The notes below the pieces were generated by a model. The model was not told the origin of the DNA, made no database searches, and worked only from the letters and a program-made list of their open reading frames with translations. 64,000 bases of DNA from a virus: IMG/VR virus record IMGVR_UViG_3300043425_000861. One strand, 5' to 3'. The position numbers and the translations under genes are program-made. Below, in pieces: positions 6,206-64,000 of the stretch; within the stretch, counting starts at the first letter, position 1, and each line of letters opens with the position of its first letter.

Positions 6206-9157
6206 TTATAATCCGTATTTTGATTTATCCACATTGTAGTTACCTAAAACCTCCGCGGCAGTCAATGCTTTACCATATATTCTAACTATACCGATTTTAC
6301 CGTCAAACCACTGTGCATATTCACCATTATTATATGAACCAATGTATAAATTCGTAGAGGTGTTTAATATACTTGATAAACTATGACTCACACTACCTAT
6401 ACTTGTACCATTAACAAATGTCTCAAACGTATTGGCCGATTGATTGGTGAACACATAAACTATTTGATACCACGTATTAAGTGTTGCCGTGTGATTTGTG
6501 CTATTAACAAACAAAGTGGACCCAGAACCGGAACCTGAACCATATTGAGCATAAAATACTGAACCCGTAGTTCTAATACTATAACCCACATTTTGTGTTA
6601 ATCCCCCAGCATTGAATTTACCAAGTACAACGTCATTACCTGCAACCGATTGATTTACCCAAACTTCTACTGTCCAATCACCCTCTTGTGGTTCTAATCC
6701 AATACTATCGGCAACTGAAATTTGAGAAGATGTTCCGTTGAATGTAAAGTATGGTGATGTATATGTTAGATTCGACATCGTTCCATTTCTACCCTGACCA
6801 GTCAAATCGGTAATTGTTGTTCCGGAGCCTGAATATGACGTTGTATTAGATGGGTCATAATGTAAAACTAAACCTAATCCCGCAACACAATTAATTGTTG
6901 CTGATTTCGCAATAATATTTGAAGGGTTTTCGGTTTCTCTTACCGCCACCCAATATGTTCCGCTTGAACCTATGGTTACAACACCGACATTTCCACCAAC
7001 TATAGGACCCCACGAAGATGCATTAAGTGCACTATTTTCGGTAGTATGTGCTCCGGCACTATATTGGTAATTATTAGATGCCGAACCAACAAGATTACTT
7101 ATTCTAATCGAACCGTTATTATTACAAGTACCTGAAATACTAAAATTCAAAGGTTCTAATGTTGGTGTTGGAGTAGGTGTTGGTGTACTCGTTGGTGTAG
7201 GAGTTGGTGTTGGAGTTGGTGTGCTCGTTGGTGTAGGTGTAGGTGCACAATCAACGAATATTGATTTAGCAAAAACATTTGAAGAATTATTTCTATCCCT
7301 TATTGAAACCCAATATGTTGCGGTAACATTAGGTATTGGAACACCGGTCGTTGTAAATGTATTTGAATTTGCCAATTCAGTCCATTGAGGAGCATTTAAC
7401 GCTTCTGACTCGGTATTAAATAATCCAAATCCTATATCATATACACCCGAACCACCAACATAATTTGTTGTATAAACACGTCCACCCAAATAACAATCAG
7501 ATGATATTGTAAAATCTAAAGGAGACTCTGTAGGTGTTGGTGTAGGGGTTGGAGTACTTGTAGATGTTGGGGTTGGAGTTGATGTGCTCGTTGGAGTTGG
7601 TGTAGGAGTTTCTGTAGGTGTTGGTGTGGGTGTTGGAGTTAATTCAGGACAATCCCAATTACTATAAGTTGAATTATAATTTCCCAAAATAGTAGATTCA
7701 CTTAGAGGTCCATCATATACCTCAAACGTACCCATTCTAAAATTACCATAACCACCGTCACCTAAACTTGTCGGACAATTACCTGCAACACTATAGTATA
7801 ATGGAGCTCCTCCCATATAATTGTATGGAGTTTGTCTATCAACACCAAAACTACTACCGGCTAAAGAACCATTAACATATGCTCTTAATGTGAATCCGTC
7901 ATAAGTAAATCCAATATAATACCAATTATTTAATGGGGTTGATATTGTTGAGGTAATTACGCTACTATGTGGCCAAACGGCAAATTTTAATGTACCGTTA
8001 ACCAATTCTATTTGAGAGTCATACCAATTCGTATTTGGTGGAAGAGTTCCTTGTTCTGAAAGAATAACACCATCGTCGATTAAATAAACCCAAGTGAATA
8101 TCGAAATAAGTGTTGAGGTATTTGATGGATTTAAATACGGGTTTAAATTACCTGTAACTAAAAAATTATTTATACCATTAAATTCAACATAGTTACTACA
8201 AGATGTTGAACCTGTTGATGGATTATTCTGTAATGTACCACCAATTCCATTAATTGTATCGGATACCGTGGTTCCATTTATACCACTTAAATCATCAAAA
8301 TTATAATATAAAATTTGATTTACGGGTATTGGTGTTTCTGTTGGTGTAGGAGTTGGAGTTGGGGTCGGTGTTGGTGTAGGAGTTGGAGTTGGGGTCGGTG
8401 TTGGTGTAGGAGTTGGTGTGGTTTGAATTAATGATTCAAACAACACATATACTGTTGTGTTATTTAAAAACATCCCCGCAGATGGTTGTATTAATTCTAT
8501 TGTGTGTTCCTCACTGTCGAAGTAGAAAGCACCAAATTCAGAACCTGATAAACTACTACCGGTATAAACCGCACAATCATTATTTTGACATAATGTAAAT
8601 CTAAACGGAGCATTACCATTTAGGAATTGAGATAAAAATTCTGAATTATCATTTCCTTGAGCGTCGATTGGATTTATCCAAAACGATTCGGTAATACCAT
8701 CATTAGGTCCTAATCCATTCGGATTTAATAACCCAATATTATTTTGAAAATCCGGCATTATTATGTAACCCTCACTTGGAGGTGCATATTCTTCAGGTTG
8801 TGCACCTGTTAATGTATATACAAATCCTTGAGGATTTATAATTTCAGACTGTAAATCGTTGTTTGGTATTAAAGTGTATGTTAAATCTGTATTTGGTATT
8901 AATGTATATGTGATATCGTTATTAGGTATTGATATAAAACTAATATCGTTATCGGGTATAAAAATATATTGAATGTCGTTATTAGGTAATTCGGTGTAAT
9001 TAAAATCGTTTGATGGGATTAATGTATATGTTAAATCATCATTCGGTATTAAGACATATCTAAAATCATTTTGAGGTGGTAATACTATATCATTTACAAT
9101 AACAAGATTACCACCGATAGGTTTAAATTGATTACTAAAACTCGATATTATCGGCAT
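6206..9157 (-). CDS. Tail fibre/adhesin with two LamG (ConA-like) domains and Pro-Thr linkers
   Basis: Two LamG-type segments (NNWYYIGFTYDG..LRAYVNG; NTWYQIVYVF...FVNG...FDGKIGIVRIY), three (PT)n tracts, N-terminal 10-aa repeats. Confidence 0.8.
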   Translation of the reverse strand: MPIISSFSNQFKPIGGNLVIVNDIVLPPQNDFRYVLIPNDDLTYTLIPSNDFNYTELPNNDIQYIFIPDNDISFISIPNNDITYTLIPNTDLTYTLIPNNDLQSEIINPQGFVYTLTGAQPEEYAPPSEGYIIMPDFQNNIGLLNPNGLGPNDGITESFWINPIDAQGNDNSEFLSQFLNGNAPFRFTLCQNNDCAVYTGSSLSGSEFGAFYFDSEEHTIELIQPSAGMFLNNTTVYVLFESLIQTTPTPTPTPTPTPTPTPTPTPTPTPTPTETPIPVNQILYYNFDDLSGINGTTVSDTINGIGGTLQNNPSTGSTSCSNYVEFNGINNFLVTGNLNPYLNPSNTSTLISIFTWVYLIDDGVILSEQGTLPPNTNWYDSQIELVNGTLKFAVWPHSSVITSTISTPLNNWYYIGFTYDGFTLRAYVNGSLAGSSFGVDRQTPYNYMGGAPLYYSVAGNCPTSLGDGGYGNFRMGTFEVYDGPLSESTILGNYNSTYSNWDCPELTPTPTPTPTETPTPTPTSTSTPTPTSTSTPTPTPTPTESPLDFTISSDCYLGGRVYTTNYVGGSGVYDIGFGLFNTESEALNAPQWTELANSNTFTTTGVPIPNVTATYWVSIRDRNNSSNVFAKSIFVDCAPTPTPTSTPTPTPTPTPTSTPTPTPTPTLEPLNFSISGTCNNNGSIRISNLVGSASNNYQYSAGAHTTENSALNASSWGPIVGGNVGVVTIGSSGTYWVAVRETENPSNIIAKSATINCVAGLGLVLHYDPSNTTSYSGSGTTITDLTGQGRNGTMSNLTYTSPYFTFNGTSSQISVADSIGLEPQEGDWTVEVWVNQSVAGNDVVLGKFNAGGLTQNVGYSIRTTGSVFYAQYGSGSGSGSTLFVNSTNHTATLNTWYQIVYVFTNQSANTFETFVNGTSIGSVSHSLSSILNTSTNLYIGSYNNGEYAQWFDGKIGIVRIYGKALTAAEVLGNYNVDKSKYGL
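8325..8421 (-). repeat. (Pro-Thr)n hexamer tract; further tracts at about 7160-7245 and 7530-7640
   Basis: GGTGTT/GGAGTT/GGTGTA hexamer runs on the plus strand encode TPTPTP. Confidence 0.9.
8850..9075 (-). repeat. About 8 tandem 30-nt repeats encoding (P)NNDLTYTLI-like units
   Basis: Translation reads PQNDFRYVLI/PNDDLTYTLI/PSNDFNYTEL/PNNDIQYIFI/PDNDISFISI/PNNDITYTLI/PNTDLTYTLI/PNNDLQSEII. Confidence 0.85.
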
Positions 9158-55919: not shown

Positions 55920-58210
55920 TATTGTATATTAATTTTTAATGTGGTTCCATTCTTATTTACTGCGTCAGTTGTTGATATTGATGTTAGACCCAAAATACCA
56001 TTAATTCCAATTAATGGAACGAATGTAATTTTATATTCGGTTGTTTTATCCAACGTAGTTGAACCGTCTGTTATCAATGAACCTAATGTTACATATGAAC
56101 CCCTGTCAGTCCCAAAATTGGTCGGATTTCCTTTTGTTAGAAATTCTACTTTTTCAAATCCTAACGCGGTTTTATCATAATTTAATTGAAATTGAGTTCC
56201 AACCACTTCTTGTTGTAATGGGTCCAATGATATTGTTACAACCACCTTACCACCTATATTTTCACTCATTAGATAAGCGTTTATTTGATTAGAAACTGAT
56301 GAACTCATAGTTGATAAACTCATAGTTCTAATTGAATTGATTGCAACACCACTTGTTGTTTGTCGTGCTGAGTGAGATAAGTTTACATCACCTACCCAAG
56401 TCACATTTACGTTGTAAGTGTTATTCAACGTACCACTATTCAAATTAAATGGGTACAAACTTCTTGTTGAGTTAAATTGATTACTCCAATTGGATTTAGT
56501 TATTGCATCATATTCAGTTTTACCATATAATTTCAACAAATAAGTCAAAGTAGAATATTGTGTTAGCGGTGCAACCCCTGTTAAATGTTGTAATAATTTG
56601 TAAGTATCTGCTTCATTAAAAATACCATTACCATCTACATCTGCGTTCATAAATTGAATACCCGATGTAAATTCTAATCCGCTTTGGTCTCCAAATATCC
56701 CACCATTTGATAATTCCTTAAATGCTATAAACACATCCGATACAGTTACAATACTATTATATAAAGTGTTTAATTCGGTTTGATTGGTATATGATAAATC
56801 AATCCCGTGTTGTTTAAATACCATATTTGGTGTGAATGTAAATTCCGCACTTAATCCCCAAAAAAATCCTGCTCGTCTTATGTTTGACGTAAATGATGAA
56901 CCCGCGAAATTAAGTTCTGTTGGTGTATAAATCCAATATGCCGCCCAAGTCCCATCATCCCATTGATATGTTACAGGTCCATTCCATAAATCAAATAATT
57001 GTAAATTTGTGACACCACTTGCTGAAGTACCTTGTGGAAACTCTCTTTTATCAATTAAAATTTGATATCTTTGATTTTGAGATTCGTAATCATATACGAC
57101 ACACCATTCTACTTGCCCACCTGTTGTTGTTGCTTTAACACCACCACCATTTATTTTTGTGGTATCTAAATCGTTTGTTAAATCAACTTTACCTAATCCA
57201 CTTATCGCTCTTGATGTATTAGTTGTTGTTCCCCACACATTGTTTACAAAAGTATTTGCCTTTGCTGTAAATTTTGTTTCATCCACATTACCACCAAAGT
57301 CAAAATTAAATCGTGCAGTTAAAACTTCTCCGTTTGAATGTGTTACTGAATTTGTATAGAATTCTGTAAATGTTGCGTTATCAGGATTAGTCCAAGTTCC
57401 AAATTCAACCACATATGGATTTACAAAATTTGGTGGTAAGTCATTCCATTGAGAACCATTCCATTTGGTTACCGCATAATCTTCATTTCCACTATTATTT
57501 GGTTCACCCCCTGCCCAGTTGTTGTATTGTCCAACTATGTTTCCAGCGGTTTGGCCGTTTGATGTTTTTATTAGCGTACCGTTTTCAGGGCCAGCATCGA
57601 TTCTCCATTGTCCTTCAACTACTTCATCAGTTAAAGCAAACCATATTTGATTTTGTGGAACGTTGTTGTAAATAAACGCGTCTTCATCAGCAGATGTGAT
57701 TGTCACCAAATATCCAGTCTGTCCTTTAAATGTTTGTTGTGATGAAAGTGTTTTAGCATTAGGGTACGTTGCGCCGGTAGATACTGGCCTATAAAAGTGT
57801 CCGTTTACACCATTATAGAAATATCCTGTTGGGTTTACGGTTGTCGCCACCGATAATGTAACATTACCCTTTACTGACCCGGTATTTACTTTTAAAGATG
57901 CTAATGCTGTATTGATATTAGCCATAGTCCCCGTTACAACTAAACGAGTTTTATTACCTGACAATGTGAATCCACTAGCTGCGGTTAAAGCTGTTGTTGT
58001 GTTTAATACGAATGTCGTACCTGACGGCGGATTTACTAAACTGATAGATGCTAATAGTGTTGCAGTGGAACTAAATCCGTTTAGAACAAATCCACTGGCG
58101 TCTTGTCCTGCTGTGGATTGTAAAAAAGATTTAGAGTCCGGAGCAGATACACTCTGTCCGAACCCTAAAAATGAAATTAGTAAAAAACATATTACTAATA
58201 GTTTCTTCAT
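55919..58210 (-). CDS. Exported C-type-lectin/dockerin-like/cohesin-like protein
   Basis: Signal peptide; GYLVTITSADE..F, WFAL.D...EGQW, YNNWAGGEPNN..NED....W...QWND (CTLD); ADVDGNGIFNEAD (dockerin-like); VGTQFQLNYD...L.F (cohesin-like). Confidence 0.7.
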   Translation of the reverse strand: MKKLLVICFLLISFLGFGQSVSAPDSKSFLQSTAGQDASGFVLNGFSSTATLLASISLVNPPSGTTFVLNTTTALTAASGFTLSGNKTRLVVTGTMANINTALASLKVNTGSVKGNVTLSVATTVNPTGYFYNGVNGHFYRPVSTGATYPNAKTLSSQQTFKGQTGYLVTITSADEDAFIYNNVPQNQIWFALTDEVVEGQWRIDAGPENGTLIKTSNGQTAGNIVGQYNNWAGGEPNNSGNEDYAVTKWNGSQWNDLPPNFVNPYVVEFGTWTNPDNATFTEFYTNSVTHSNGEVLTARFNFDFGGNVDETKFTAKANTFVNNVWGTTTNTSRAISGLGKVDLTNDLDTTKINGGGVKATTTGGQVEWCVVYDYESQNQRYQILIDKREFPQGTSASGVTNLQLFDLWNGPVTYQWDDGTWAAYWIYTPTELNFAGSSFTSNIRRAGFFWGLSAEFTFTPNMVFKQHGIDLSYTNQTELNTLYNSIVTVSDVFIAFKELSNGGIFGDQSGLEFTSGIQFMNADVDGNGIFNEADTYKLLQHLTGVAPLTQYSTLTYLLKLYGKTEYDAITKSNWSNQFNSTRSLYPFNLNSGTLNNTYNVNVTWVGDVNLSHSARQTTSGVAINSIRTMSLSTMSSSVSNQINAYLMSENIGGKVVVTISLDPLQQEVVGTQFQLNYDKTALGFEKVEFLTKGNPTNFGTDRGSYVTLGSLITDGSTTLDKTTEYKITFVPLIGINGILGLTSISTTDAVNKNGTTLKINIQ

Positions 58211-58211
58211 A

Positions 58212-59861
58212 TTACTCGACGATTAAATCAACTTTATTTCCTTTCGCATCAACAGCATCAGATAAAACAAAGTAGAATAAACCGGCGGTATTTGTTAAAG
58301 TTGTTTTTGGTGTGAATACCAACTTATACGGAGTTCCTGTTTTAATTCTCGCAGTTTTCAATTGGTCAATAGAACCGAAAGTTAATCTACCGTCTTTATG
58401 TGTTGAAAAGTTTGTTATTGTTGAACCCGCGTCAAATATCACATTATCCAATGTTAATTTTGATTCGTCATAACTCATAATAACTTCCAATCCTGCCAAT
58501 CCTTCTTTTGTTAAATTTGTGGTTAATACAACTTTGCCATTTTCCAAAGTAGATGTTACACTCAACTTAGCAGTTTCTACCGCTTCAGTTTTATATGACA
58601 TTGATTGTGTTGATATAGTCGACATAGTACCAATTGAATTTACTGAGTTTGTGTATTGTCCGGCACTTATTCTACTAGCAATTACTGCTGGGTCTGATGA
58701 ATGTGACCAGTTTAAGTCACCACCCCACGCGTACACCGCATACACTTCTTTAACAGGAGTATCAATTGTAACTTTATTTTTAATGTTACCATCTAACCAA
58801 TCTTGATTTAATAAACCACTATGCCATCTCCAAGAAGTTGATGTTTGTGTTGGTATAAATGCATTTGTGGAAACATCTTGACCCATAACATATGCGAATG
58901 AATAATATGAATCCGATTCATTAAATACGTTATCGTTTTTAGTGATATTACCAACCTTCTTCTCTAAATTTGGATAAGTGAAGAAGTTCGCAGTTCCTGA
59001 TATATCTGTTTGTGAATGTCCTAAAAACGCTTTGTATGCGTCTGAAACAGTAATGACATTATTCATCCAAGCTTTTTGTGAGGCTGGACTAACAAACACA
59101 CCCAAACTATCACCAACCTTTACTTGTGTTGTAAATAACGCTTCACCTGTTGCATCTAAAGGTAATTGAGCAATCGGTTGTTGTGACCAATCAATAGTAC
59201 CACTACCATCCGTTTTTAATCTCATTAATTGAACATTATGGTCGGTAATTGTATATCCTTGTGGGAATAGAACCTTTACTTTAAATTGTGACGTATTACC
59301 AAGAACACCACTTAATGATATATTTGTTGAACTTCTTGTTATTGGTGATATATTAACAGACGAATCGTTAATTGCATATGACAAATCCAATTTATGAATA
59401 TCATTATATGTGTTTTGGTCTTTTAATATAAATTTTTGAGTTGCAATATCACCATTAATTGATGCGTCAGTTCTTTGAACAGTTAATTGCCCGACATTCC
59501 AATCATTATTTACTGAATATCCCCAAGGAGTTGTGGTGTATTGTGCATATAATTGTGTTTCAGCAACATTTGGTGCCGGTGTAAACTTATAGTTATTCCA
59601 ACCTGTATAGAATGTTTGTGTTGAACTACCTTGAGTGAATACAGTACTGTTCGGTACCATAGACAACGCCTTATTATTAAAAGAATATCTCAACCAAAAA
59701 TATCTTGGTGTTGTTGTTCCTCTAGTTACAGTGTACTTAACTGTTAATGTATCACCAACCTTTAATCCCGTTGTTGGGGTGATAGTTTGATTAACCGTTA
59801 ATTGTGCAAATGATGAAATGGTGGATAATAAAAATACACCGATAATTAATAATTTTTTCAT
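58212..59861 (-). CDS. Exported cohesin-like/dockerin-like/cohesin-like protein
   Basis: Signal peptide; KVGDTLTV...RYSFNNKAL; ITVSDAY...FNESD...GDLNWSHS; LAGLEVIMSYDESKLTL. The C-terminal region is paralogous to 55919-58210. Confidence 0.6.
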   Translation of the reverse strand: MKKLLIIGVFLLSTISSFAQLTVNQTITPTTGLKVGDTLTVKYTVTRGTTTPRYFWLRYSFNNKALSMVPNSTVFTQGSSTQTFYTGWNNYKFTPAPNVAETQLYAQYTTTPWGYSVNNDWNVGQLTVQRTDASINGDIATQKFILKDQNTYNDIHKLDLSYAINDSSVNISPITRSSTNISLSGVLGNTSQFKVKVLFPQGYTITDHNVQLMRLKTDGSGTIDWSQQPIAQLPLDATGEALFTTQVKVGDSLGVFVSPASQKAWMNNVITVSDAYKAFLGHSQTDISGTANFFTYPNLEKKVGNITKNDNVFNESDSYYSFAYVMGQDVSTNAFIPTQTSTSWRWHSGLLNQDWLDGNIKNKVTIDTPVKEVYAVYAWGGDLNWSHSSDPAVIASRISAGQYTNSVNSIGTMSTISTQSMSYKTEAVETAKLSVTSTLENGKVVLTTNLTKEGLAGLEVIMSYDESKLTLDNVIFDAGSTITNFSTHKDGRLTFGSIDQLKTARIKTGTPYKLVFTPKTTLTNTAGLFYFVLSDAVDAKGNKVDLIVE

Positions 59862-59863
59862 TT

Positions 59864-60397
59864 TTACTTTTTAATTGAAAACACTTTATTTATTAAAGAT
59901 TCACACGTCTTTTTAATCGCGGATGAAAGAGCTTGTTGATTTATTTTATCACTACCTTCATCGGTTATTAATGTTGATGTCGAGATTTCTGAGCTTGATT
60001 CTTCAGCAACAGCCTCTTTGATTTTCTTACCTTCTTTAGTTGTTAATTTACCTCTCATTACCACCAAAGTTTCTTCTTTGTCTGAATGAAATACTGAGAT
60101 ATTAGTCTTGGTTTTATTAACATCAAAAAATAAGATTTCAGCACTAAAAATCAAATCAGCCTTAGTGATGTCTTCGACAATTAGATAATCCTTATCTTGT
60201 AATATTTCTTGGAAAATGTTTTTAGCACCAAAAGCTAAATTTCGATTATTAGCCATTTTACCAACAATCACTTTGTTCTCTACTTTATCCACGTAGACGG
60301 ATTTTGGGTCCTCAATCGGTTGAAAAATCCTTACCAATAAGCCCACGAATAGGATGTACAGTATCGGTAAGAGCGATACGTTTAGTCTGTTTGTCAT
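59864..60397 (-). CDS. Membrane-anchored CsgG/LptE-like alpha/beta protein
   Basis: N-terminal TM; VYVD.VEN...L.FG.KN..QEIL...ADL....EI..F; C-terminal INQQALSSAIKK parallels FNQSTISIATKK of the CsgG-like gene. Confidence 0.55.
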   Translation of the reverse strand: MTNRLNVSLLPILYILFVGLLVRIFQPIEDPKSVYVDKVENKVIVGKMANNRNLAFGAKNIFQEILQDKDYLIVEDITKADLIFSAEILFFDVNKTKTNISVFHSDKEETLVVMRGKLTTKEGKKIKEAVAEESSSEISTSTLITDEGSDKINQQALSSAIKKTCESLINKVFSIKK

Positions 60398-60501
60398 ACT
60401 AATAAATATGACAATTGTCACTATTAGTATAAACTTTATATTATTTTAATTTGGCAATATTGCCGTGTTTTTAGATGTTAAAAAAATATTTTTAAACTTT
60501 T

Positions 60502-60533
60502 ATTGATTATATACATATTTATTAGTATCTTTG
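60502..60533 (+). promoter_or_regulatory. Bacteroidota-type promoter of tRNA cluster 1 leader
   Basis: ATTG (60502-05), 20 nt, TATCTTTG (60526-33). Confidence 0.6.
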
Positions 60534-60562
60534 TAAAAAGAAAAAACATTAAATAAAATTCA

Positions 60563-60661
60563 ATGAGACAATTTACACATATTATGTCGTTTACAATCTG
60601 TTCAAAATGGGCGGATGAGCGTTCTATGTCTATATGTCTCGATGATACTGATGTTGGTTAA
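60563..60661 (+). CDS. Leader peptide 1 (32 aa), putative attenuator of tRNA cluster 1
   Basis: MRQFTHIMSFTICSKWADERSMSICLDDTDVG*; A-rich initiation context; codons match the downstream tRNAs. Confidence 0.75.
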   Translation: MRQFTHIMSFTICSKWADERSMSICLDDTDVG

Positions 60662-60684
60662 ATTAGTTTAACTTAAAATATTAG

Positions 60685-60718
60685 AAAACCTCGGGACTTT
60701 AAAATCTCGAGGTTTTTT
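60685..60718 (+). terminator. Attenuator terminator 1
   Basis: AAAACCTCGGGA/TCTCGAGGTTTT plus U tract, ending 6 nt before tRNA-Ala. Confidence 0.85.
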
Positions 60719-60724
60719 GTTTAT

Positions 60725-60797
60725 GGGCCGGATGTCAATGGCAGACCACCTGATTTGCAATCAGAGTGAAAGGGTTCGATTCCCTACGTGTCCACCA
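60725..60797 (+). tRNA. tRNA-Ala(TGC)
   Basis: Loop TTTGCAA, G3:U70, encoded CCA; imperfect acceptor stem. Confidence 0.75.
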
Positions 60798-60859
60798 CCC
60801 CCGAGTTTTGGAGCTGGTACCTCCTTTTACCCGAATTGAAATTAAAAACTACCACAAAT

Positions 60860-60932
60860 TCTTAGGTAACTCAATGGTGAGAGTACCTCGCTGATACCGA
60901 GGAGGTTGGTAGTTCGAATCTACCCCTAAGAA
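60860..60932 (+). tRNA. tRNA-Ile(GAT)
   Basis: CCTCG-CTGATAC-CGAGG; TTCGAAT T-loop. Confidence 0.9.
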
Positions 60933-60937
60933 CATAA

Positions 60938-61010
60938 GGAGATGAAGCTAACTTAGTAGAAGCATCGGACTGAAAATCCGAAGGAGTTGGAGCGTAACCA
61001 ACTATCTCCA
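60938..61010 (+). tRNA. tRNA-Phe(GAA), atypical T-loop
   Basis: TCGGA-CTGAAAA-TCCGA; T-loop AGCGTAA. Confidence 0.8.
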
Positions 61011-61072
61011 CAATAAAGTAAAAAATGCTTAATAAAGTGAACAACTTTATTATACAAAAACAACTTTATTAT

Positions 61073-61146
61073 GACCTCTTAGCTCAGTTGGTTAGAGCAC
61101 CTCACTTTTAATGAGGGAGTCCCGCGTTCGAGTCGCGGAGGGGTCA
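61073..61146 (+). tRNA. tRNA-Lys(TTT)
   Basis: CCTCA-CTTTTAA-TGAGG; canonical cloverleaf. Confidence 0.95.
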
Positions 61147-61224
61147 CAATACGAATCAACCGGGTGGCTGAAACCTAACTAGTAGTGGAGAATACCCACA
61201 ACCCGGTCAATGTTCGTATTAACT

Positions 61225-61295
61225 ACGGGTGTAGTTCAATGGTAGAATTATGGTCTCCAAAACCATCGATGGGAGTTCGAATCTCTCCACCCGTG
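61225..61295 (+). tRNA. tRNA-Trp(CCA)
   Basis: ATGGT-CTCCAAA-ACCAT. Confidence 0.93.
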
Positions 61296-61363
61296 CAAAT
61301 TATATCTAAAAACATATAAAAATGAAAAAACAATTTGACAAGCATTAGTTAAACTAATGCAAA

Positions 61364-61561
61364 ATGAAAAACAAAGAAGAACGAGTAAAACAAATGAATT
61401 CAATTTACAATTATTGTTTCATTTGTAATAAAAGAAATGGTAGTTGGTATTATGATTGTCACCCATCAAGTTGGTATGTAAAACGACACGGAAATGGAAA
61501 AATCGTAAGACAAAGAGAGTGTAGAAGTTGGAAACACAACAGAAAAACCCAATGGAAATAA
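61364..61561 (+). CDS. Small basic Cys/His protein inside the tRNA array
   Basis: 65 aa; CFIC...CH; ends RSWKHNRKTQWK. Confidence 0.6.
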   Translation: MKNKEERVKQMNSIYNYCFICNKRNGSWYYDCHPSSWYVKRHGNGKIVRQRECRSWKHNRKTQWK

Positions 61562-61564
61562 TTT

Positions 61565-61636
61565 GGTCTCTTGGTGTAACGGATAGCACGGAACACTACG
61601 AATGTTTTAGTAAAGGTTCGAGTCCTTTAGAGACCT
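61565..61636 (+). tRNA. tRNA-Arg(ACG)
   Basis: GAACA-CTACGAA-TGTTT. Confidence 0.92.
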
Positions 61637-61695
61637 CTGTTCACAAAATATCGTTGTTCACGGTTCGTGAACAGAGAACAAACGTGAACAAATAA

Positions 61696-61768
61696 GTCAG
61701 GTTGGCCGAGTTGGTTTAGGTGACGGTCTGCAAAACCGTTTACATTGGTTCGAATCCAATACTTGACT
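61696..61768 (+). tRNA. tRNA-Cys(GCA)
   Basis: ACGGT-CTGCAAA-ACCGT; U73. Confidence 0.92.
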
Positions 61769-61770
61769 CT

Positions 61771-61846
61771 GTGATAGATGTTCGTATGGTAGGACCTAAG
61801 ATTGTGGCTCTTAGATTAGCGGGTTCGAATCCCGTCTATCACCCCA
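61771..61846 (+). tRNA. tRNA-His(GTG)
   Basis: TAAGA-TTGTGGC-TCTTA; C73 plus CCA; no encoded G-1. Confidence 0.88.
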
Positions 61847-61849
61847 TAT

Positions 61850-61919
61850 TGCGGGAAGGTTAGGTAACCCGCCAGGTCTCATAAGCCTGTGCATCCGAGT
61901 TCGATTCTCGGTCCCGCAA
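61850..61919 (+). tRNA. tRNA-Met(CAT), elongator-like with short D-arm
   Basis: CAGGT-CTCATAA-GCCTG; paired 1:72. Confidence 0.8.
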
Positions 61920-61938
61920 CAAAAAAGATTAAAAATAT

Positions 61939-61969
61939 TTTGTGATTTCACAATTTATTATTATCTTTG
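61939..61969 (+). promoter_or_regulatory. Internal Bacteroidota-type promoter before tRNA-fMet
   Basis: TTTG (61939-42), 19 nt, TATCTTTG (61962-69). Confidence 0.65.
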
Positions 61970-61979
61970 TAAAACAAAT

Positions 61980-62051
61980 CGCGAGATAGAGCAGCGGTAG
62001 CTCGGAAGGCTCATAACCTTTAGGTCGGGGGTTCGATTCCCTCTCTCGCAA
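61980..62051 (+). tRNA. tRNA-fMet(CAT)
   Basis: C1:A72 mismatch; GAAGG-CTCATAA-CCTTT. Confidence 0.85.
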
Positions 62052-62053
62052 CA

Positions 62054-62318
62054 ATAGGTGAAGACTGTGGTGGAAGCCCACGGTATATGAATCCCTAAAA
62101 GCTGTCTTGATTCGCGGTATCAAAGCGGTGCGGGTAGAGTTACATATAAGTCGGGAGTAATTAACCAATTGACGAAAATGTATCCACAGATATGGAGATA
62201 TATCTGTTATGATGTTCAAATGCGAACGAAAAACCTATAACTTATTGAGACTAACTCAACGAGGACTTTGTCAACCAGAGCAATGACTTGGATGGTGCAA
62301 CTTAAGGTGAGTTAGAAT
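62054..62318 (+). ncRNA. Unidentified structured RNA (about 265 nt)
   Basis: GC-elevated; nested helices ATAGGT/ACCTAT, ACTGTGG/CCACGGT, ACAGATAT/ATATCTGT, CTAACTCA/TGAGTTAG. Confidence 0.6.
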
Positions 62319-62325
62319 CAAAATT

Positions 62326-62399
62326 GGAGCGGTAGTTCAGTTGGTTAGAATGCCTGCCTGTCACGCAGGAGGTCGCGGGTTCGAGTCCCGTCCGTTCCG
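62326..62399 (+). tRNA. tRNA-Asp(GTC)
   Basis: CCTGC-CTGTCAC-GCAGG. Confidence 0.97.
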
Positions 62400-62406
62400 C
62401 AAATTT

Positions 62407-62492
62407 GGAGAGATGGCAGAGTTGGTCTATCGCGTCGGTCTTGAAAACCGAAGTTCTGAAAGGGACCGTGGGTTCGAATCCTACTCTCTCCG
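62407..62492 (+). tRNA. tRNA-Ser(TGA)
   Basis: TCGGT-CTTGAAA-ACCGA; long variable arm. Confidence 0.95.
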
Positions 62493-62497
62493 CACTT

Positions 62498-62569
62498 GCT
62501 CGGTTCGACTAGTGGTTAGGTCGCATCCCTTTCACGGATGTAGCACGGGTTCGAATCCCGTACCGAGTA
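62498..62569 (+). tRNA. tRNA-Glu(TTC)
   Basis: CATCC-CTTTCAC-GGATG. Confidence 0.95.
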
Positions 62570-62626
62570 CAAAATAATTTTTAACTATTTACACTTTTTT
62601 ATAATTTGTGTATACTTATTAAAACG

Positions 62627-62734
62627 ATGAAGAATATAAATAACATATTGACGAGTACAAGACCACTTACAAATGGTAATGGGTATGGTGTGCAACCGTT
62701 ATGTTACTTATGTTCGGATATCAATAAAGGATAA
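62627..62734 (+). CDS. Leader peptide 2 (35 aa), putative attenuator of tRNA cluster 2
   Basis: MKNINNILTSTRPLTNGNGYGVQPLCYLCSDINKG*; codons match the downstream tRNAs. Confidence 0.75.
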   Translation: MKNINNILTSTRPLTNGNGYGVQPLCYLCSDINKG

Positions 62735-62761
62735 TAGAAAATTATTAAAACTTATATCGAG

Positions 62762-62791
62762 ACCCGAACACAAAAAATGTTCGGGTTTTTT
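62762..62791 (+). terminator. Attenuator terminator 2
   Basis: ACCCGAACA/TGTTCGGGT plus U tract. Confidence 0.85.
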
Positions 62792-62811
62792 GTTTTGTAA
62801 TTTTTTATCTC

Positions 62812-62837
62812 TATATTTGAAATAGGTTCTTTGACAT
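62812..62837 (+). promoter_or_regulatory. Possible promoter -7 element and boxA-like antitermination site
   Basis: TATATTTG (62812-19) followed by GTTCTTTGACAT, resembling rrn boxA. Confidence 0.5.
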
Positions 62838-62852
62838 ATTGGAATAACGAAT

Positions 62853-62936
62853 GCCGGAGTGTTGGAATGGTAGACAAGACAGACTTAAAATCTGTTGAGC
62901 TGAAAGCTCGTGTGGGTTCGAGTCCCATCTCCGGTA
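62853..62936 (+). tRNA. tRNA-Leu(TAA)
   Basis: ACAGA-CTTAAAA-TCTGT; long variable arm. Confidence 0.95.
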
Positions 62937-62976
62937 CAAACACTATCGTTCTTTGAAGATAAAGGAGAAACATAAT

Positions 62977-63225
62977 ATGGATATATTATCATTTATTTTA
63001 GGAATGTCTATAGTTGTGGTTATTGCGGTTGCAGTAGTTGCGGTTATAGCCTTTGTTAAGGTGAACAGACTAAACAAAGAGATTGAATCGATTCACACAA
63101 TTTATTCGGGTGAATTTGAAAGGGTTAATAGAGATAGAACAGATTCGGAAAGACAGATTTATTCTGTGTTAGATTCTCGACTTGATAAACTTGAAAGTAA
63201 AATAACAAATAGCCGTAAGGCATAA
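62977..63225 (+). CDS. Single-TM coiled-coil protein inside the tRNA array
   Basis: Likely start MDILSF; TM helix, then DSRLDKLE. Confidence 0.65.
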   Translation: MDILSFILGMSIVVVIAVAVVAVIAFVKVNRLNKEIESIHTIYSGEFERVNRDRTDSERQIYSVLDSRLDKLESKITNSRKA

Positions 63226-63263
63226 AAATTAAATAAAACTTTCAAAGACGATAGTGTTAATTT

Positions 63264-63335
63264 GGGCCCATAGTTAAAGGGATATAACTTCTCACTTCTA
63301 ATGAGATGTTCGTGGTTCGAGTCCACGTGGGCCTA
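63264..63335 (+). tRNA. tRNA-Arg(TCT)
   Basis: TCTCA-CTTCTAA-TGAGA. Confidence 0.93.
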
Positions 63336-63336
63336 C

Positions 63337-63476
63337 AAAGATAATGGTCTGATGTTATAATTGTTGTCGACTAACATTATAACTACTTAAACAGACAGCA
63401 CCCTCTGCCGATGCATCGTAAAACTATTACTAAGCAGTTAAGATTGGAACGAAACGGGTATTCCAACATTATCTTT
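63337..63476 (+). ncRNA. Unidentified structured RNA (140 nt)
   Basis: Closed by perfect AAAGATAATG/CATTATCTTT; internal GTCTG/CAGAC, GTTATAA/TTATAAC, CTGC/GCAG and TTGGAA/TTCCAA helices. Confidence 0.6.
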
Positions 63477-63480
63477 ATTT

Positions 63481-63554
63481 TGGGAATTAGCGTAGTCCGG
63501 TATCGCGCTTGGTTTGGGACCAAGAGGTCGTCAGTTCGAATCTGGCATTCCCAA
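63481..63554 (+). tRNA. tRNA-Pro(TGG)
   Basis: CTTGG-TTTGGGA-CCAAG. Confidence 0.92.
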
Positions 63555-63561
63555 CAAAAAT

Positions 63562-63633
63562 GCTGATGTAGCTCAACGGCAGAGCAATTGACTGTTAATC
63601 AATAGGTTGAGATATCGTAATTCTCCATCAGCG
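63562..63633 (+). tRNA. tRNA-Asn(GTT), atypical T-loop
   Basis: ATTGA-CTGTTAA-TCAAT; T-loop ATCGTAA. Confidence 0.85.
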
Positions 63634-63638
63634 CAAAT

Positions 63639-63720
63639 GGCCAAGTGGTGGAACGGTATACACGTATGTTTTAGAAACATATGTCAGAACGGCGTGAGAG
63701 TTCGAATCTCTCCTTGGTCA
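63639..63720 (+). tRNA. tRNA-Leu(TAG)
   Basis: TATGT-TTTAGAA-ACATA; long variable arm. Confidence 0.92.
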
Positions 63721-63766
63721 CGGAAAACGGTTTGTATGTATACGTTAGGTTAGGAATGTACAGAAT

Positions 63767-63847
63767 GGGAGTATCGCATAGCGGCAATTGCAGAAGACTG
63801 TAAATCTTCCCTCATCGAGTTCAGTGGTTCGAGTCCACTTACTCCCA
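63767..63847 (+). tRNA. tRNA-Tyr(GTA)
   Basis: GAAGA-CTGTAAA-TCTTC. Confidence 0.95.
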
Positions 63848-63858
63848 CAAAATAAAAT

Positions 63859-64000
63859 ATGATGAGAACACTAAAAGAACTTATAAAGGAGATTAAATCT
63901 CCCGAATACAAACAAAAACAAATTGAAGAACATCAAAAGTATCTTGATGAGATATCGATGGATTATCAACTAGGTTACTACGTTGGTGAATATATTGTTA
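63859..64000 (+). CDS. Hypothetical protein, 3' partial
   Basis: MMRTLKELIKEIKSPEYKQ... open to the window end. Confidence 0.5.
   Translation, partial: MMRTLKELIKEIKSPEYKQKQIEEHQKYLDEISMDYQLGYYVGEYIV

Follow-up and report, generated by a model that had tools for sequence, protein, structure and literature searches.

The tRNA genes of the phage contig described here form an array on the + strand, spanning positions 60725 to 63848 of a 64,000-nucleotide stretch of DNA (IMG/VR record IMGVR_UViG_3300043425_000861; the whole stretch is referred to below as the window) and comprising 18 tRNAs by the ARAGORN count. Genes for a large terminase, a portal protein and a DNA polymerase are present on the window, marking it as a phage contig. 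Its large terminase was less than 30% identical to that of all cultured phages in a protein comparison, and a blastn search of positions 58000-64000 against GenBank phages matched solely the tRNA genes of unrelated phages, revealing no close cultured relative. Similarly, no PHROGs match was found for the three genes adjoining the leader described below. The host is probably a member of the Bacteroidota; the sole basis for this assignment is the promoter-like motif preceding the array (TTG-N20-TATCTTTG), which we take to be of the Bacteroidota sigma-A type.

The array and the promoter-like sites associated with it are arranged as follows:

60503..60533, + strand: promoter-like site of the Bacteroidota type (TTG, 20 nt, TATCTTTG), from a motif scan
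60725..60794, + strand: atypical tRNA-Ala(UGC)-like gene (Rfam tRNA 29.7 bits; gathering score 29)
60860..61920, + strand: tRNAs Ile, Phe, Lys, Trp, Arg(ACG), Cys, His and Met (ARAGORN, Rfam)
61364-61561, + strand: 65-codon ORF amid the tRNAs, inside the 60860..61920 stretch
61940-69, + strand: internal promoter-like site, from a motif scan
61980-62052, + strand: initiator tRNA, with a C1xA72 mismatch
within 61940..62570, + strand: tRNAs Asp, Ser(UGA) and Glu, after the initiator tRNA (ARAGORN)
62627..62789, + strand: putative second attenuator of like design, with a leader ORF, a switch strand (GTTCGG) and a terminator

Between the first promoter-like site and the array we found a short leader ORF and an intrinsic terminator (see below). 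The Ala-like gene, whose position is occupied by a canonical tRNA-Ala(tgc) in relatives (ARAGORN), begins 3 nt past the last T of the T-tract of this terminator, a gap that leaves no space for a promoter, so that the gene can be transcribed by read-through only. The motif scan detected no promoter motif between 60533 and 61940, and the first nine tRNAs (the Ala-like gene and the eight that follow it) appear from this arrangement to need read-through of the terminator. The internal promoter-like site at 61940 provides a separate start for the initiator, Asp, Ser and Glu tRNAs. The first leader (leader 1) is thus not the only control point for the last three, and all four can also be reached by read-through from it. 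Further downstream, leader 2 (35 codons, 62627-62734) and its terminator (62759-89) are followed by tRNAs Leu(UAA), Arg(UCU), Pro, Asn, Leu(UAG) and Tyr, and in relatives this second cluster goes on with CAU, Val, Thr, Gly, Gly, Gln and Ser(GCU). A promoter-like site at 62790, past terminator 2, makes the case for the second attenuator weaker.

For comparison, we gathered 80 related IMG/VR loci through a neighbouring 549-aa gene, and further loci from three DNA-pattern scans of IMG/VR phage contigs. The matches listed by the 16-mer pattern scan were mostly chance ones, and true leaders were picked by the presence of the ORF and the terminator. In total, more than 40 distinct leaders were collected from related phage contigs, 25 of which, distinct and homologous, make up the alignment used below. 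The terminator is retained throughout this collection, as is a stretch able to pair with its 5' arm.

The leader ORF

The leader region contains the following elements, all on the same strand as the tRNA genes:

60560..60570, + strand: R1, 5' strand of a putative anti-antiterminator; overlaps the start codon and pairs with 60635-60645 (MFE fold)
60563..60661, + strand: leader ORF of 32 codons plus TAA, stop codon at 60659-61 (ORF listing)
60572..60622, + strand: putative sensor codons 4-20, from the codon-to-tRNA match; codon 20 is CGT, 60620-60622
60588..60621, + strand: inner hairpin in the sensor region of type A leaders (MFE fold only)
60636..60642, + strand: R2, switch strand GTCTCGA; pairs with R1 or with the terminator 5' arm at 60691-97
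60648..60684, + strand: stop-codon hairpin, between R2 and R3 (MFE fold)
60685..60722, + strand: intrinsic terminator, with 5' arm R3 (60685-96), 3' arm R4 (60705-16) and T-tract (60713-22)

The ORF begins 30 nt 3' of the conserved promoter-like site, both boxes of which are kept in 13 homologous loci, and the transcript is predicted to start near 60540. The leader 5' of the ORF is A-rich and carries no Shine-Dalgarno sequence, and an in-frame TAA at 60554-56 precludes an earlier start. Despite indels, the reading frame is unbroken in every distinct homologue found (more than 40 leaders), with lengths ranging from 28 to 59 codons. Among type A leaders, the type to which leader 1 belongs, codons 12-19 show synonymous changes only, and the last 11 codons carry non-synonymous changes, at first and second positions, as would be expected if the tail of the ORF encodes RNA structure rather than peptide. 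Together with the frame-specific match to tRNAs described next, the intact frame and the synonymous-only stretch make the ORF look translated.

The codons of the leader match the tRNA genes that follow it

Codons 4-20 of the leader encode Phe Thr His Ile Met Ser Phe Thr Ile Cys Ser Lys Trp Ala Asp Glu Arg. All of the elongator specificities found downstream (12/12) are represented in this stretch by one or two codons each, and the only sensor codons lacking a matching tRNA in the downstream unit are the two Thr codons. The set of 12 includes the weak tRNA-Ala(UGC)-like gene (60725-60794) and excludes the initiator tRNA; counted in this way, codon 20 completes the set, as the first-pass annotation of this DNA had proposed. 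The probability that 17 random codons cover all 12 specificities, given the window's own amino-acid frequencies, is 1.7e-6. Full coverage of the 12 occurred in only one of the 272 small ORFs of the window, which is the leader ORF itself, with the runner-up covering 10.

Leader 2 served as an internal control for codon matching: its codons spell the amino acids of the second cluster, not those of the first. For amino acids unique to one cluster, the comparison of leader 1 with leader 2 gave 13/2 versus 3/18 (Fisher p = 2e-5). The match extends to isoacceptors, because the Ser codons TCG/TCA and the Arg codon CGT of leader 1 fit Ser(UGA) and Arg(ACG), and the Ser codon AGT and Arg codon AGA of leader 2 fit Ser(GCU) and Arg(UCU). 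It also depends on the reading frame, with a mean coverage of tRNAs by leader codons of 0.94 in frame as compared with 0.54 and 0.42 in the shifted frames. Each sensor codon is present once or twice, without runs, and a partial shortage of one tRNA may therefore cause perhaps only a brief pause.

Leaders and tRNA genes change together among relatives

When tRNA clusters were permuted among 20 leaders, the tracking of downstream tRNAs by leader codons was significant (p <= 5e-5), and this was also the case within type B leaders alone (n = 8; p = 1e-4). The type B leader is rich in Leu, Thr, Asn, Ser, Gln, Trp and Pro codons, and the tRNAs that come after it are Pro, Asn, Trp, Leu(UAG), Gln and Thr. 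Sub-variants of this leader have gained His, Arg(CGT), Tyr, Asp or Met codons, or lost Leu codons, and these gains and losses mostly accompany changes in the matching tRNA genes. In eight remote lineages (L205, L206, L207, L202, L211, L199, L233 and L234), the leader covers 86-100% of the downstream specificities, with probabilities between 1e-5 and 1e-2 per lineage.

A reciprocal case is found in two of these remote lineages, L207 and L202, in which the order of the clusters is reversed and the tRNA genes for Asp and Glu belong to the other cluster rather than to the unit behind the A-type leader. Codons for these two amino acids are missing from the A-type leader, and both are present in the other cluster's leader. 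This swap indicates that a leader tracks its own downstream unit rather than the whole tRNA repertoire of the phage. Leaders and their tRNA blocks are also gained and lost jointly among relatives. All of the related arrays with at least 10 tRNAs have the leader, and in L223 a leader of 59 codons stands ahead of 19 tRNAs. In the closest relative of the window (L001), leader 1 and the nine tRNAs that follow it are both absent, and the array starts exactly at the internal promoter before the initiator tRNA.

Alternative RNA structures in the leader

The leader RNA is strongly structured (z = -5.85 as compared with shuffled sequences). The terminator has 12 pairs, one of them G:U, followed by T6-G-T3, and its hairpin has a predicted stability of -15.2 kcal/mol (R3:R4, -16.6 kcal/mol). 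R2 and TCGGGAC (60691-60697) form seven antiparallel pairs including one G:U (R2:R3, -10.4 kcal/mol), exactly where the first-pass annotation had placed them. R2 targets the half of the terminator 5' arm (60685-60696) that lies next to the loop; in the terminator, this arm pairs with 60705-60716. A GTTAAA (60657-62)/TTTAAC (60667-72) hairpin previously noted over the stop codon was recovered as the inner part of a longer one, at 60648-60684; the antiterminator together with this stop-codon hairpin has a predicted energy of -17.7 kcal/mol.

R2 has another potential partner, R1: in the MFE fold 60564-70 pairs with 60635-41, and the R1:R2 duplex, of -11.7 kcal/mol, partly buries the start codon in the full-length fold. 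Run unguided on the alignment of 25 leaders, RNAalifold returned three helices: the long-range R1:R2 helix, the stop-codon hairpin and the terminator. The R1:R2 helix was found as a core of five pairs, 60565-69 (GAGAC) with 60636-40 (GTCTC), which is conserved and varies too little among the aligned leaders for a covariation test, and the inner stem of the stop-codon hairpin entered the consensus with compensatory changes. These folds suggest a four-segment attenuator in which R2 could pair with either R1 or R3. The R1:R2 helix and the role of the stop-codon hairpin at a junction are additions to the 2:3 and 3:4 helices of the first-pass annotation. The inner hairpin at 60588..60621 may be a pause hairpin, or may aid in holding R1 and R2 together.

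Conservation of the antiterminator pairing

A complement of 7 bp or longer to the terminator arm occurred in 230 of 5000 dinucleotide shuffles of the leader (4.6%), and the chance rate overall is about 5-7%. The 7-bp complement of the window is thus weak evidence by itself, and the case rests on comparison among leaders. Across the 25 leaders, 98.3% of cells showed the antiterminator paired, and at two pairs both partners had changed; the observed values were reached by none of 500 shuffles, and slid controls gave 4-57%. At 60642:60691, 15 leaders have an A-U pair and 7 have G-C, and the pair 60641:60692 is G-C, G-U or A-U, so that the covariation with the terminator arm, whose absence had been named in advance as grounds for rejecting the pairing, is present. 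The terminator itself was paired in 99.7% of cells, again with two pairs changed on both sides. The covarying sites represent two haplotypes of one 3' module that recombines as a block, and because they are linked in this way the number of independent compensatory events is small.

Divergent leaders use other registers for the same type of pairing, with complements of 11 bp in L057, 10 bp in L205 and 11 bp in L223, each occurring in 0-1 of 1000 shuffles, and an 8-bp complement to the terminator 5' arm in L199 and L202. Taken over these divergent lineages, registers of 8-11 bp were found in 0-21 of 1000 shuffles. Just 5-6 contiguous antiterminator pairs are seen in L206, L211, L103, L234 and L233. 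In nearly all lineages tested, the complement starts at codons 23-28 of ORFs of 28-36 codons (codon 51 of 59 in L223) and lies 4-25 nt 5' of the stop codon. The covariation in 25 leaders and the divergent registers support the view, already put forward for the window, that the antiterminator and the terminator would be mutually exclusive.

Ribosome position and the choice of fold

The distance between codon 20 (CGT, 60620-60622) and the start of R2 at 60636 is 13 nt, exactly as first described, and had been likened to the reach of a stalled ribosome. We modelled this geometry by partition-function folding of a transcript ending at 60700, before the 3' arm, with a 30-nt ribosome mask. With A-site codons 2-20, the antiterminator probability was about 0.99, except at codon 14 (0.45); with the A site at codon 21 it was lower (0.71), by codon 22 it had dropped to 0.03, and across codons 24-30 it was 0, in agreement with the geometry proposed. 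The folding switch thus falls between codons 21 and 22, exactly where the codons matched to tRNAs run out. In the MFE structure of the stalled state, the 7-bp antiterminator closes a junction around the stop-codon hairpin, which would bring R2 and R3 close to each other. With the ribosome at the stop codon, R1:R2 re-formed (0.79), and with no ribosome on the truncated transcript R1:R2 had a probability of 0.63 and the antiterminator 0.34.

The folding states can be distinguished only on the truncated transcript that precedes the 3' arm. For the full-length RNA, equilibrium folding yields the terminator whichever ribosome state is imposed, and the model consequently requires a kinetic trap. A ribosome at the stop codon leaves R2 uncovered, unlike in trp, and in the model termination in this state would depend on R1:R2 re-forming or on steric separation.

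A model for control of the tRNA operon

We consider it likely, with a rough probability of 0.75, that the element is a ribosome-mediated (leader-peptide) transcription attenuator preceding a phage tRNA operon. The sequence elements, their conservation, the covariation of the pairings, the tracking of tRNA genes by codons and the thermodynamic compatibility of the folds are direct observations; that the ORF is translated, that ribosomes stall on it, that the folds compete kinetically and that regulation runs in the direction given below are steps that we infer. According to this model, transcription would begin near 60540, and a ribosome would load on the leader despite its lack of a Shine-Dalgarno sequence and translate 60563-60661. 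When a cognate aminoacyl-tRNA is scarce, the ribosome would lag or stall within codons 2-21, where it would separate R1 from R2 and leave R2 (60636-42) exposed. The free R2 could then capture 60691-97, the loop-proximal half of the 5' arm, around the stop-codon hairpin, which would stop nucleation of the terminator and allow RNA polymerase to continue into the tRNA genes.

When decoding is fast, the ribosome would instead mask R2 (A-site codons 22-31) and then, at the stop codon, melt the stop-codon hairpin. It would be positioned between R2 and R3 as the 3' arm leaves the polymerase, and the terminator would form and transcription would stop at about 60720. If the leader were not translated at all, R1:R2 and the terminator would both form and the operon would be off. 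The net effect would be a demand-driven negative feedback on the tRNA supply of the phage, acting as an OR gate over about 12 tRNA pools.

A related reading accepts that the attenuator is real and holds that it senses the general status of translation or coupling (how far ribosomes are available, whether the cell is starved for amino acids, or when the host is shut off) rather than the supply of particular tRNAs, the codon match merely ensuring that the leader can be decoded by the phage's own tRNAs. The single codon copies imply weak sensitivity to any one tRNA, and the predicted termination without translation means that the element also senses whether translation occurs, both of which suit this reading. 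Yet the codons for His, Arg, Tyr, Leu, Gln and Asp/Glu follow the gain or loss of single tRNA genes, and such fine-scale tracking of specificities points to selection on the match of each codon to its own tRNA, making a purely general sensor unlikely. Greater difficulties face a switch that works independently of translation, by direct, T-box-like tRNA sensing or as a processing or pause element, with the ORF as a by-product. The strong structure of the leader and the partial burial of its start codon in R1:R2 are compatible with such a switch, but no T-box or other Rfam family besides tRNA was found at E <= 1 (the T-box model, RF00230, was absent from 59800-64000); 17 "specifier" codons laid out along an intact, indel-tolerant frame fit decoding by a ribosome, not a single specifier loop, and the matched codons stop exactly where the ribosome footprint starts to mask R2. 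We therefore regard a translation-independent switch as very improbable.

The least probable of the explanations considered is that the ORF is an ordinary small gene with a constitutive terminator or insulator, that the resemblance of its peptide to the tRNA set has no regulatory meaning, and that the tRNAs are supplied from other promoters or by leaky read-through. That the 7-bp complement by itself is near the chance level, that promoter-like motifs occur inside the array at 61940 and 62790, and that in some relatives a terminator of the same type just ends a normal gene before tRNA-Leu(UAA) would all be in line with an ordinary gene. This explanation, however, leaves the frame-specific codon-to-tRNA tracking and the reciprocal Asp/Glu swap unaccounted for, and it is at odds with the missing promoter space between the T-tract and the first tRNA, with a peptide tail that evolves like RNA structure rather than protein, and with the joint gain and loss of the leader and its tRNA block. 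The ribosome-mediated attenuator is the reading that we adopt in what follows.

Discussion

Phage tRNA genes are usually viewed as constitutive helpers in codon usage, or as spares against tRNA-cleaving defences, and to our knowledge their regulation is essentially unknown. If the attenuator operates as modelled, the codon-by-codon list of tRNAs in the leader would constitute a direct feedback sensor of decoding capacity, and ribosome-mediated attenuation would extend from amino-acid operons to tRNA genes. It would also provide a compact model for multi-input sensing, in which 17 codons take up about 12 inputs. The co-evolution of leader codons and tRNA genes would represent a rare regulatory "address list" that is readable from sequence and that could predict transcription units in phage tRNA arrays.

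A more speculative extension, on present evidence doubtful, is that these attenuators are a counter-defence switch that keeps replacement tRNA sets silent as long as the host tRNAs are intact. If this were true, the tRNA sets would be induced set by set upon destruction or exhaustion of the host tRNAs, with triggers such as anticodon nucleases, other tRNA-targeting immunity or the phage's own host shut-off. The leader would then be a multi-input sensor whose length and codon content evolve with the tRNA genes that it guards.

Leader-peptide attenuation is a classic mode of control of amino-acid operons. Similar to trpL, hisL, leuL, pheL, thrL and ilvL/ivbL of Proteobacteria, the element described here has a short leader ORF with regulatory codons, four segments (predicted to pair as 1:2, 2:3 and 3:4) in which the position of the ribosome would select the fold, and an intrinsic terminator before the first regulated gene, and super-attenuation is likewise predicted in the absence of translation. 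Five of the six sequence-level features of the class of leader-peptide attenuators are present: the leader ORF, the regulatory codons, the terminator, the exclusive antiterminator and the ribosome-position geometry, the last of these by model. The sixth feature, the 1:2 helix, appears in the MFE fold and in the RNAalifold core, and is conserved with low variation in the aligned leaders. Among amino-acid-operon attenuators, the multivalent ilv leaders are the nearest. The differences are that the regulated genes here are tRNA genes rather than enzyme genes; that at least 12 amino acids are represented by one or two codons each, in contrast to the runs of one to three kinds of codon in leaders such as hisL and trpL; and that the stop codon lies 16 nt 3' of R2 in a separate hairpin, so that a terminating ribosome leaves R2 uncovered. 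As the phage is probably one of Bacteroidota, sequence similarity to the proteobacterial leaders is not expected, and no Rfam leader match was found.

Two other systems share part of this logic. In E. coli, the pheST operon, with its pheM leader, is a case of leader-peptide attenuation of a gene of the translation apparatus, which senses the aminoacyl-tRNA that its product helps to make. The element in the window likewise targets the translation apparatus; the pheST attenuator controls a synthetase, responds to one amino acid (Phe) and is cellular, not viral. T-box elements resemble the leader in that tRNA status decides between terminator and antiterminator and in that the codon-anticodon specificity is written in the leader, but a T-box binds uncharged tRNA directly, without a ribosome, by means of one specifier codon and a conserved motif, whereas the codons here lie in an ORF. 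We found no report in the literature of leader-peptide control of tRNA genes. Set against these systems, what is new here is the use of tRNA genes as targets, the presence of one codon per tRNA for at least 12 tRNAs, and a stop-codon hairpin that serves as the junction.

Rearrangement of leader-plus-cluster cassettes in related phages

In two related phage loci from IMG/VR, L207 and L202, the two tRNA clusters occur in inverted order as compared with the window; the unit of array rearrangement is therefore a cassette composed of a leader and its cluster. In L001, the closest relative as judged by a neighbouring gene (95% identity), leader 1 is missing together with nine tRNAs, from Ala to Met, and the array starts at the promoter-like site upstream of the initiator tRNA.

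L001, reverse strand, reverse-complement positions roughly 8200-8450: region in which the array starts, at the promoter-like site 5' of the initiator tRNA
Window 61940-62052: second promoter-like site (motif TTG-N19-TATCTTTG) and, directly 3' of it, a CAU tRNA

Sequence is shared between the promoter-like site of leader 1 and that of the initiator tRNA, which suggests that the L001 state arose by deletion, through recombination between these two sites. The CAU tRNA was read as an initiator because it carries a C1xA72 mismatch, the mark of initiator tRNAs. It is the sole cluster member that lies beyond sensing by elongation codons, and has its own promoter-like site with no leader.

Additional elements within the tRNA clusters

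Window 60725-60794: tRNA-Ala(UGC)-like gene, after terminator 1
Window 61364-61561: 65-codon ORF rich in Cys, Trp and Lys, between tRNA-Trp and tRNA-Arg of cluster 1
Window 62053-62325: spacer of 270 nt that separates the initiator tRNA from tRNA-Asp
Window 62790-62819: promoter-like motif, directly 3' of terminator 2 and 5' of tRNA-Leu(UAA)
Window 62977-63225: small ORF for which a single hydrophobic helix is predicted, between tRNA-Leu(UAA) and tRNA-Arg(UCU) of cluster 2

The tRNA-Ala(UGC)-like gene (Rfam, 29.7 bits; not called by ARAGORN) contains a G3:U70 pair, but its acceptor stem has two mismatches and the junction between acceptor and D arm is 2 nt short of the usual length. This odd form is kept in the nearest relatives, and a canonical tRNA-Ala occupies the same position in more distant ones. 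The 65-codon ORF would be expected to share a transcript with the cluster 1 tRNAs. No tRNA, Rfam match or convincing ORF was detected in the 270-nt spacer.

Attenuator 2 may only supplement a constitutive tRNA supply, given the promoter-like motif that follows its terminator and the finding that in several relatives the same terminator merely closes an ordinary gene ahead of tRNA-Leu(UAA).

Leader length and the size of the controlled array

L223:5390-5650, + strand: region of a 59-codon leader, found likewise in the related locus L218

In L223, a GC-richer relative, this leader contains all 20 amino acids; its antiterminator is 11 bp long, the terminator is the same, and 19 tRNAs follow. Leader length seems to scale with how many tRNA species are under control.
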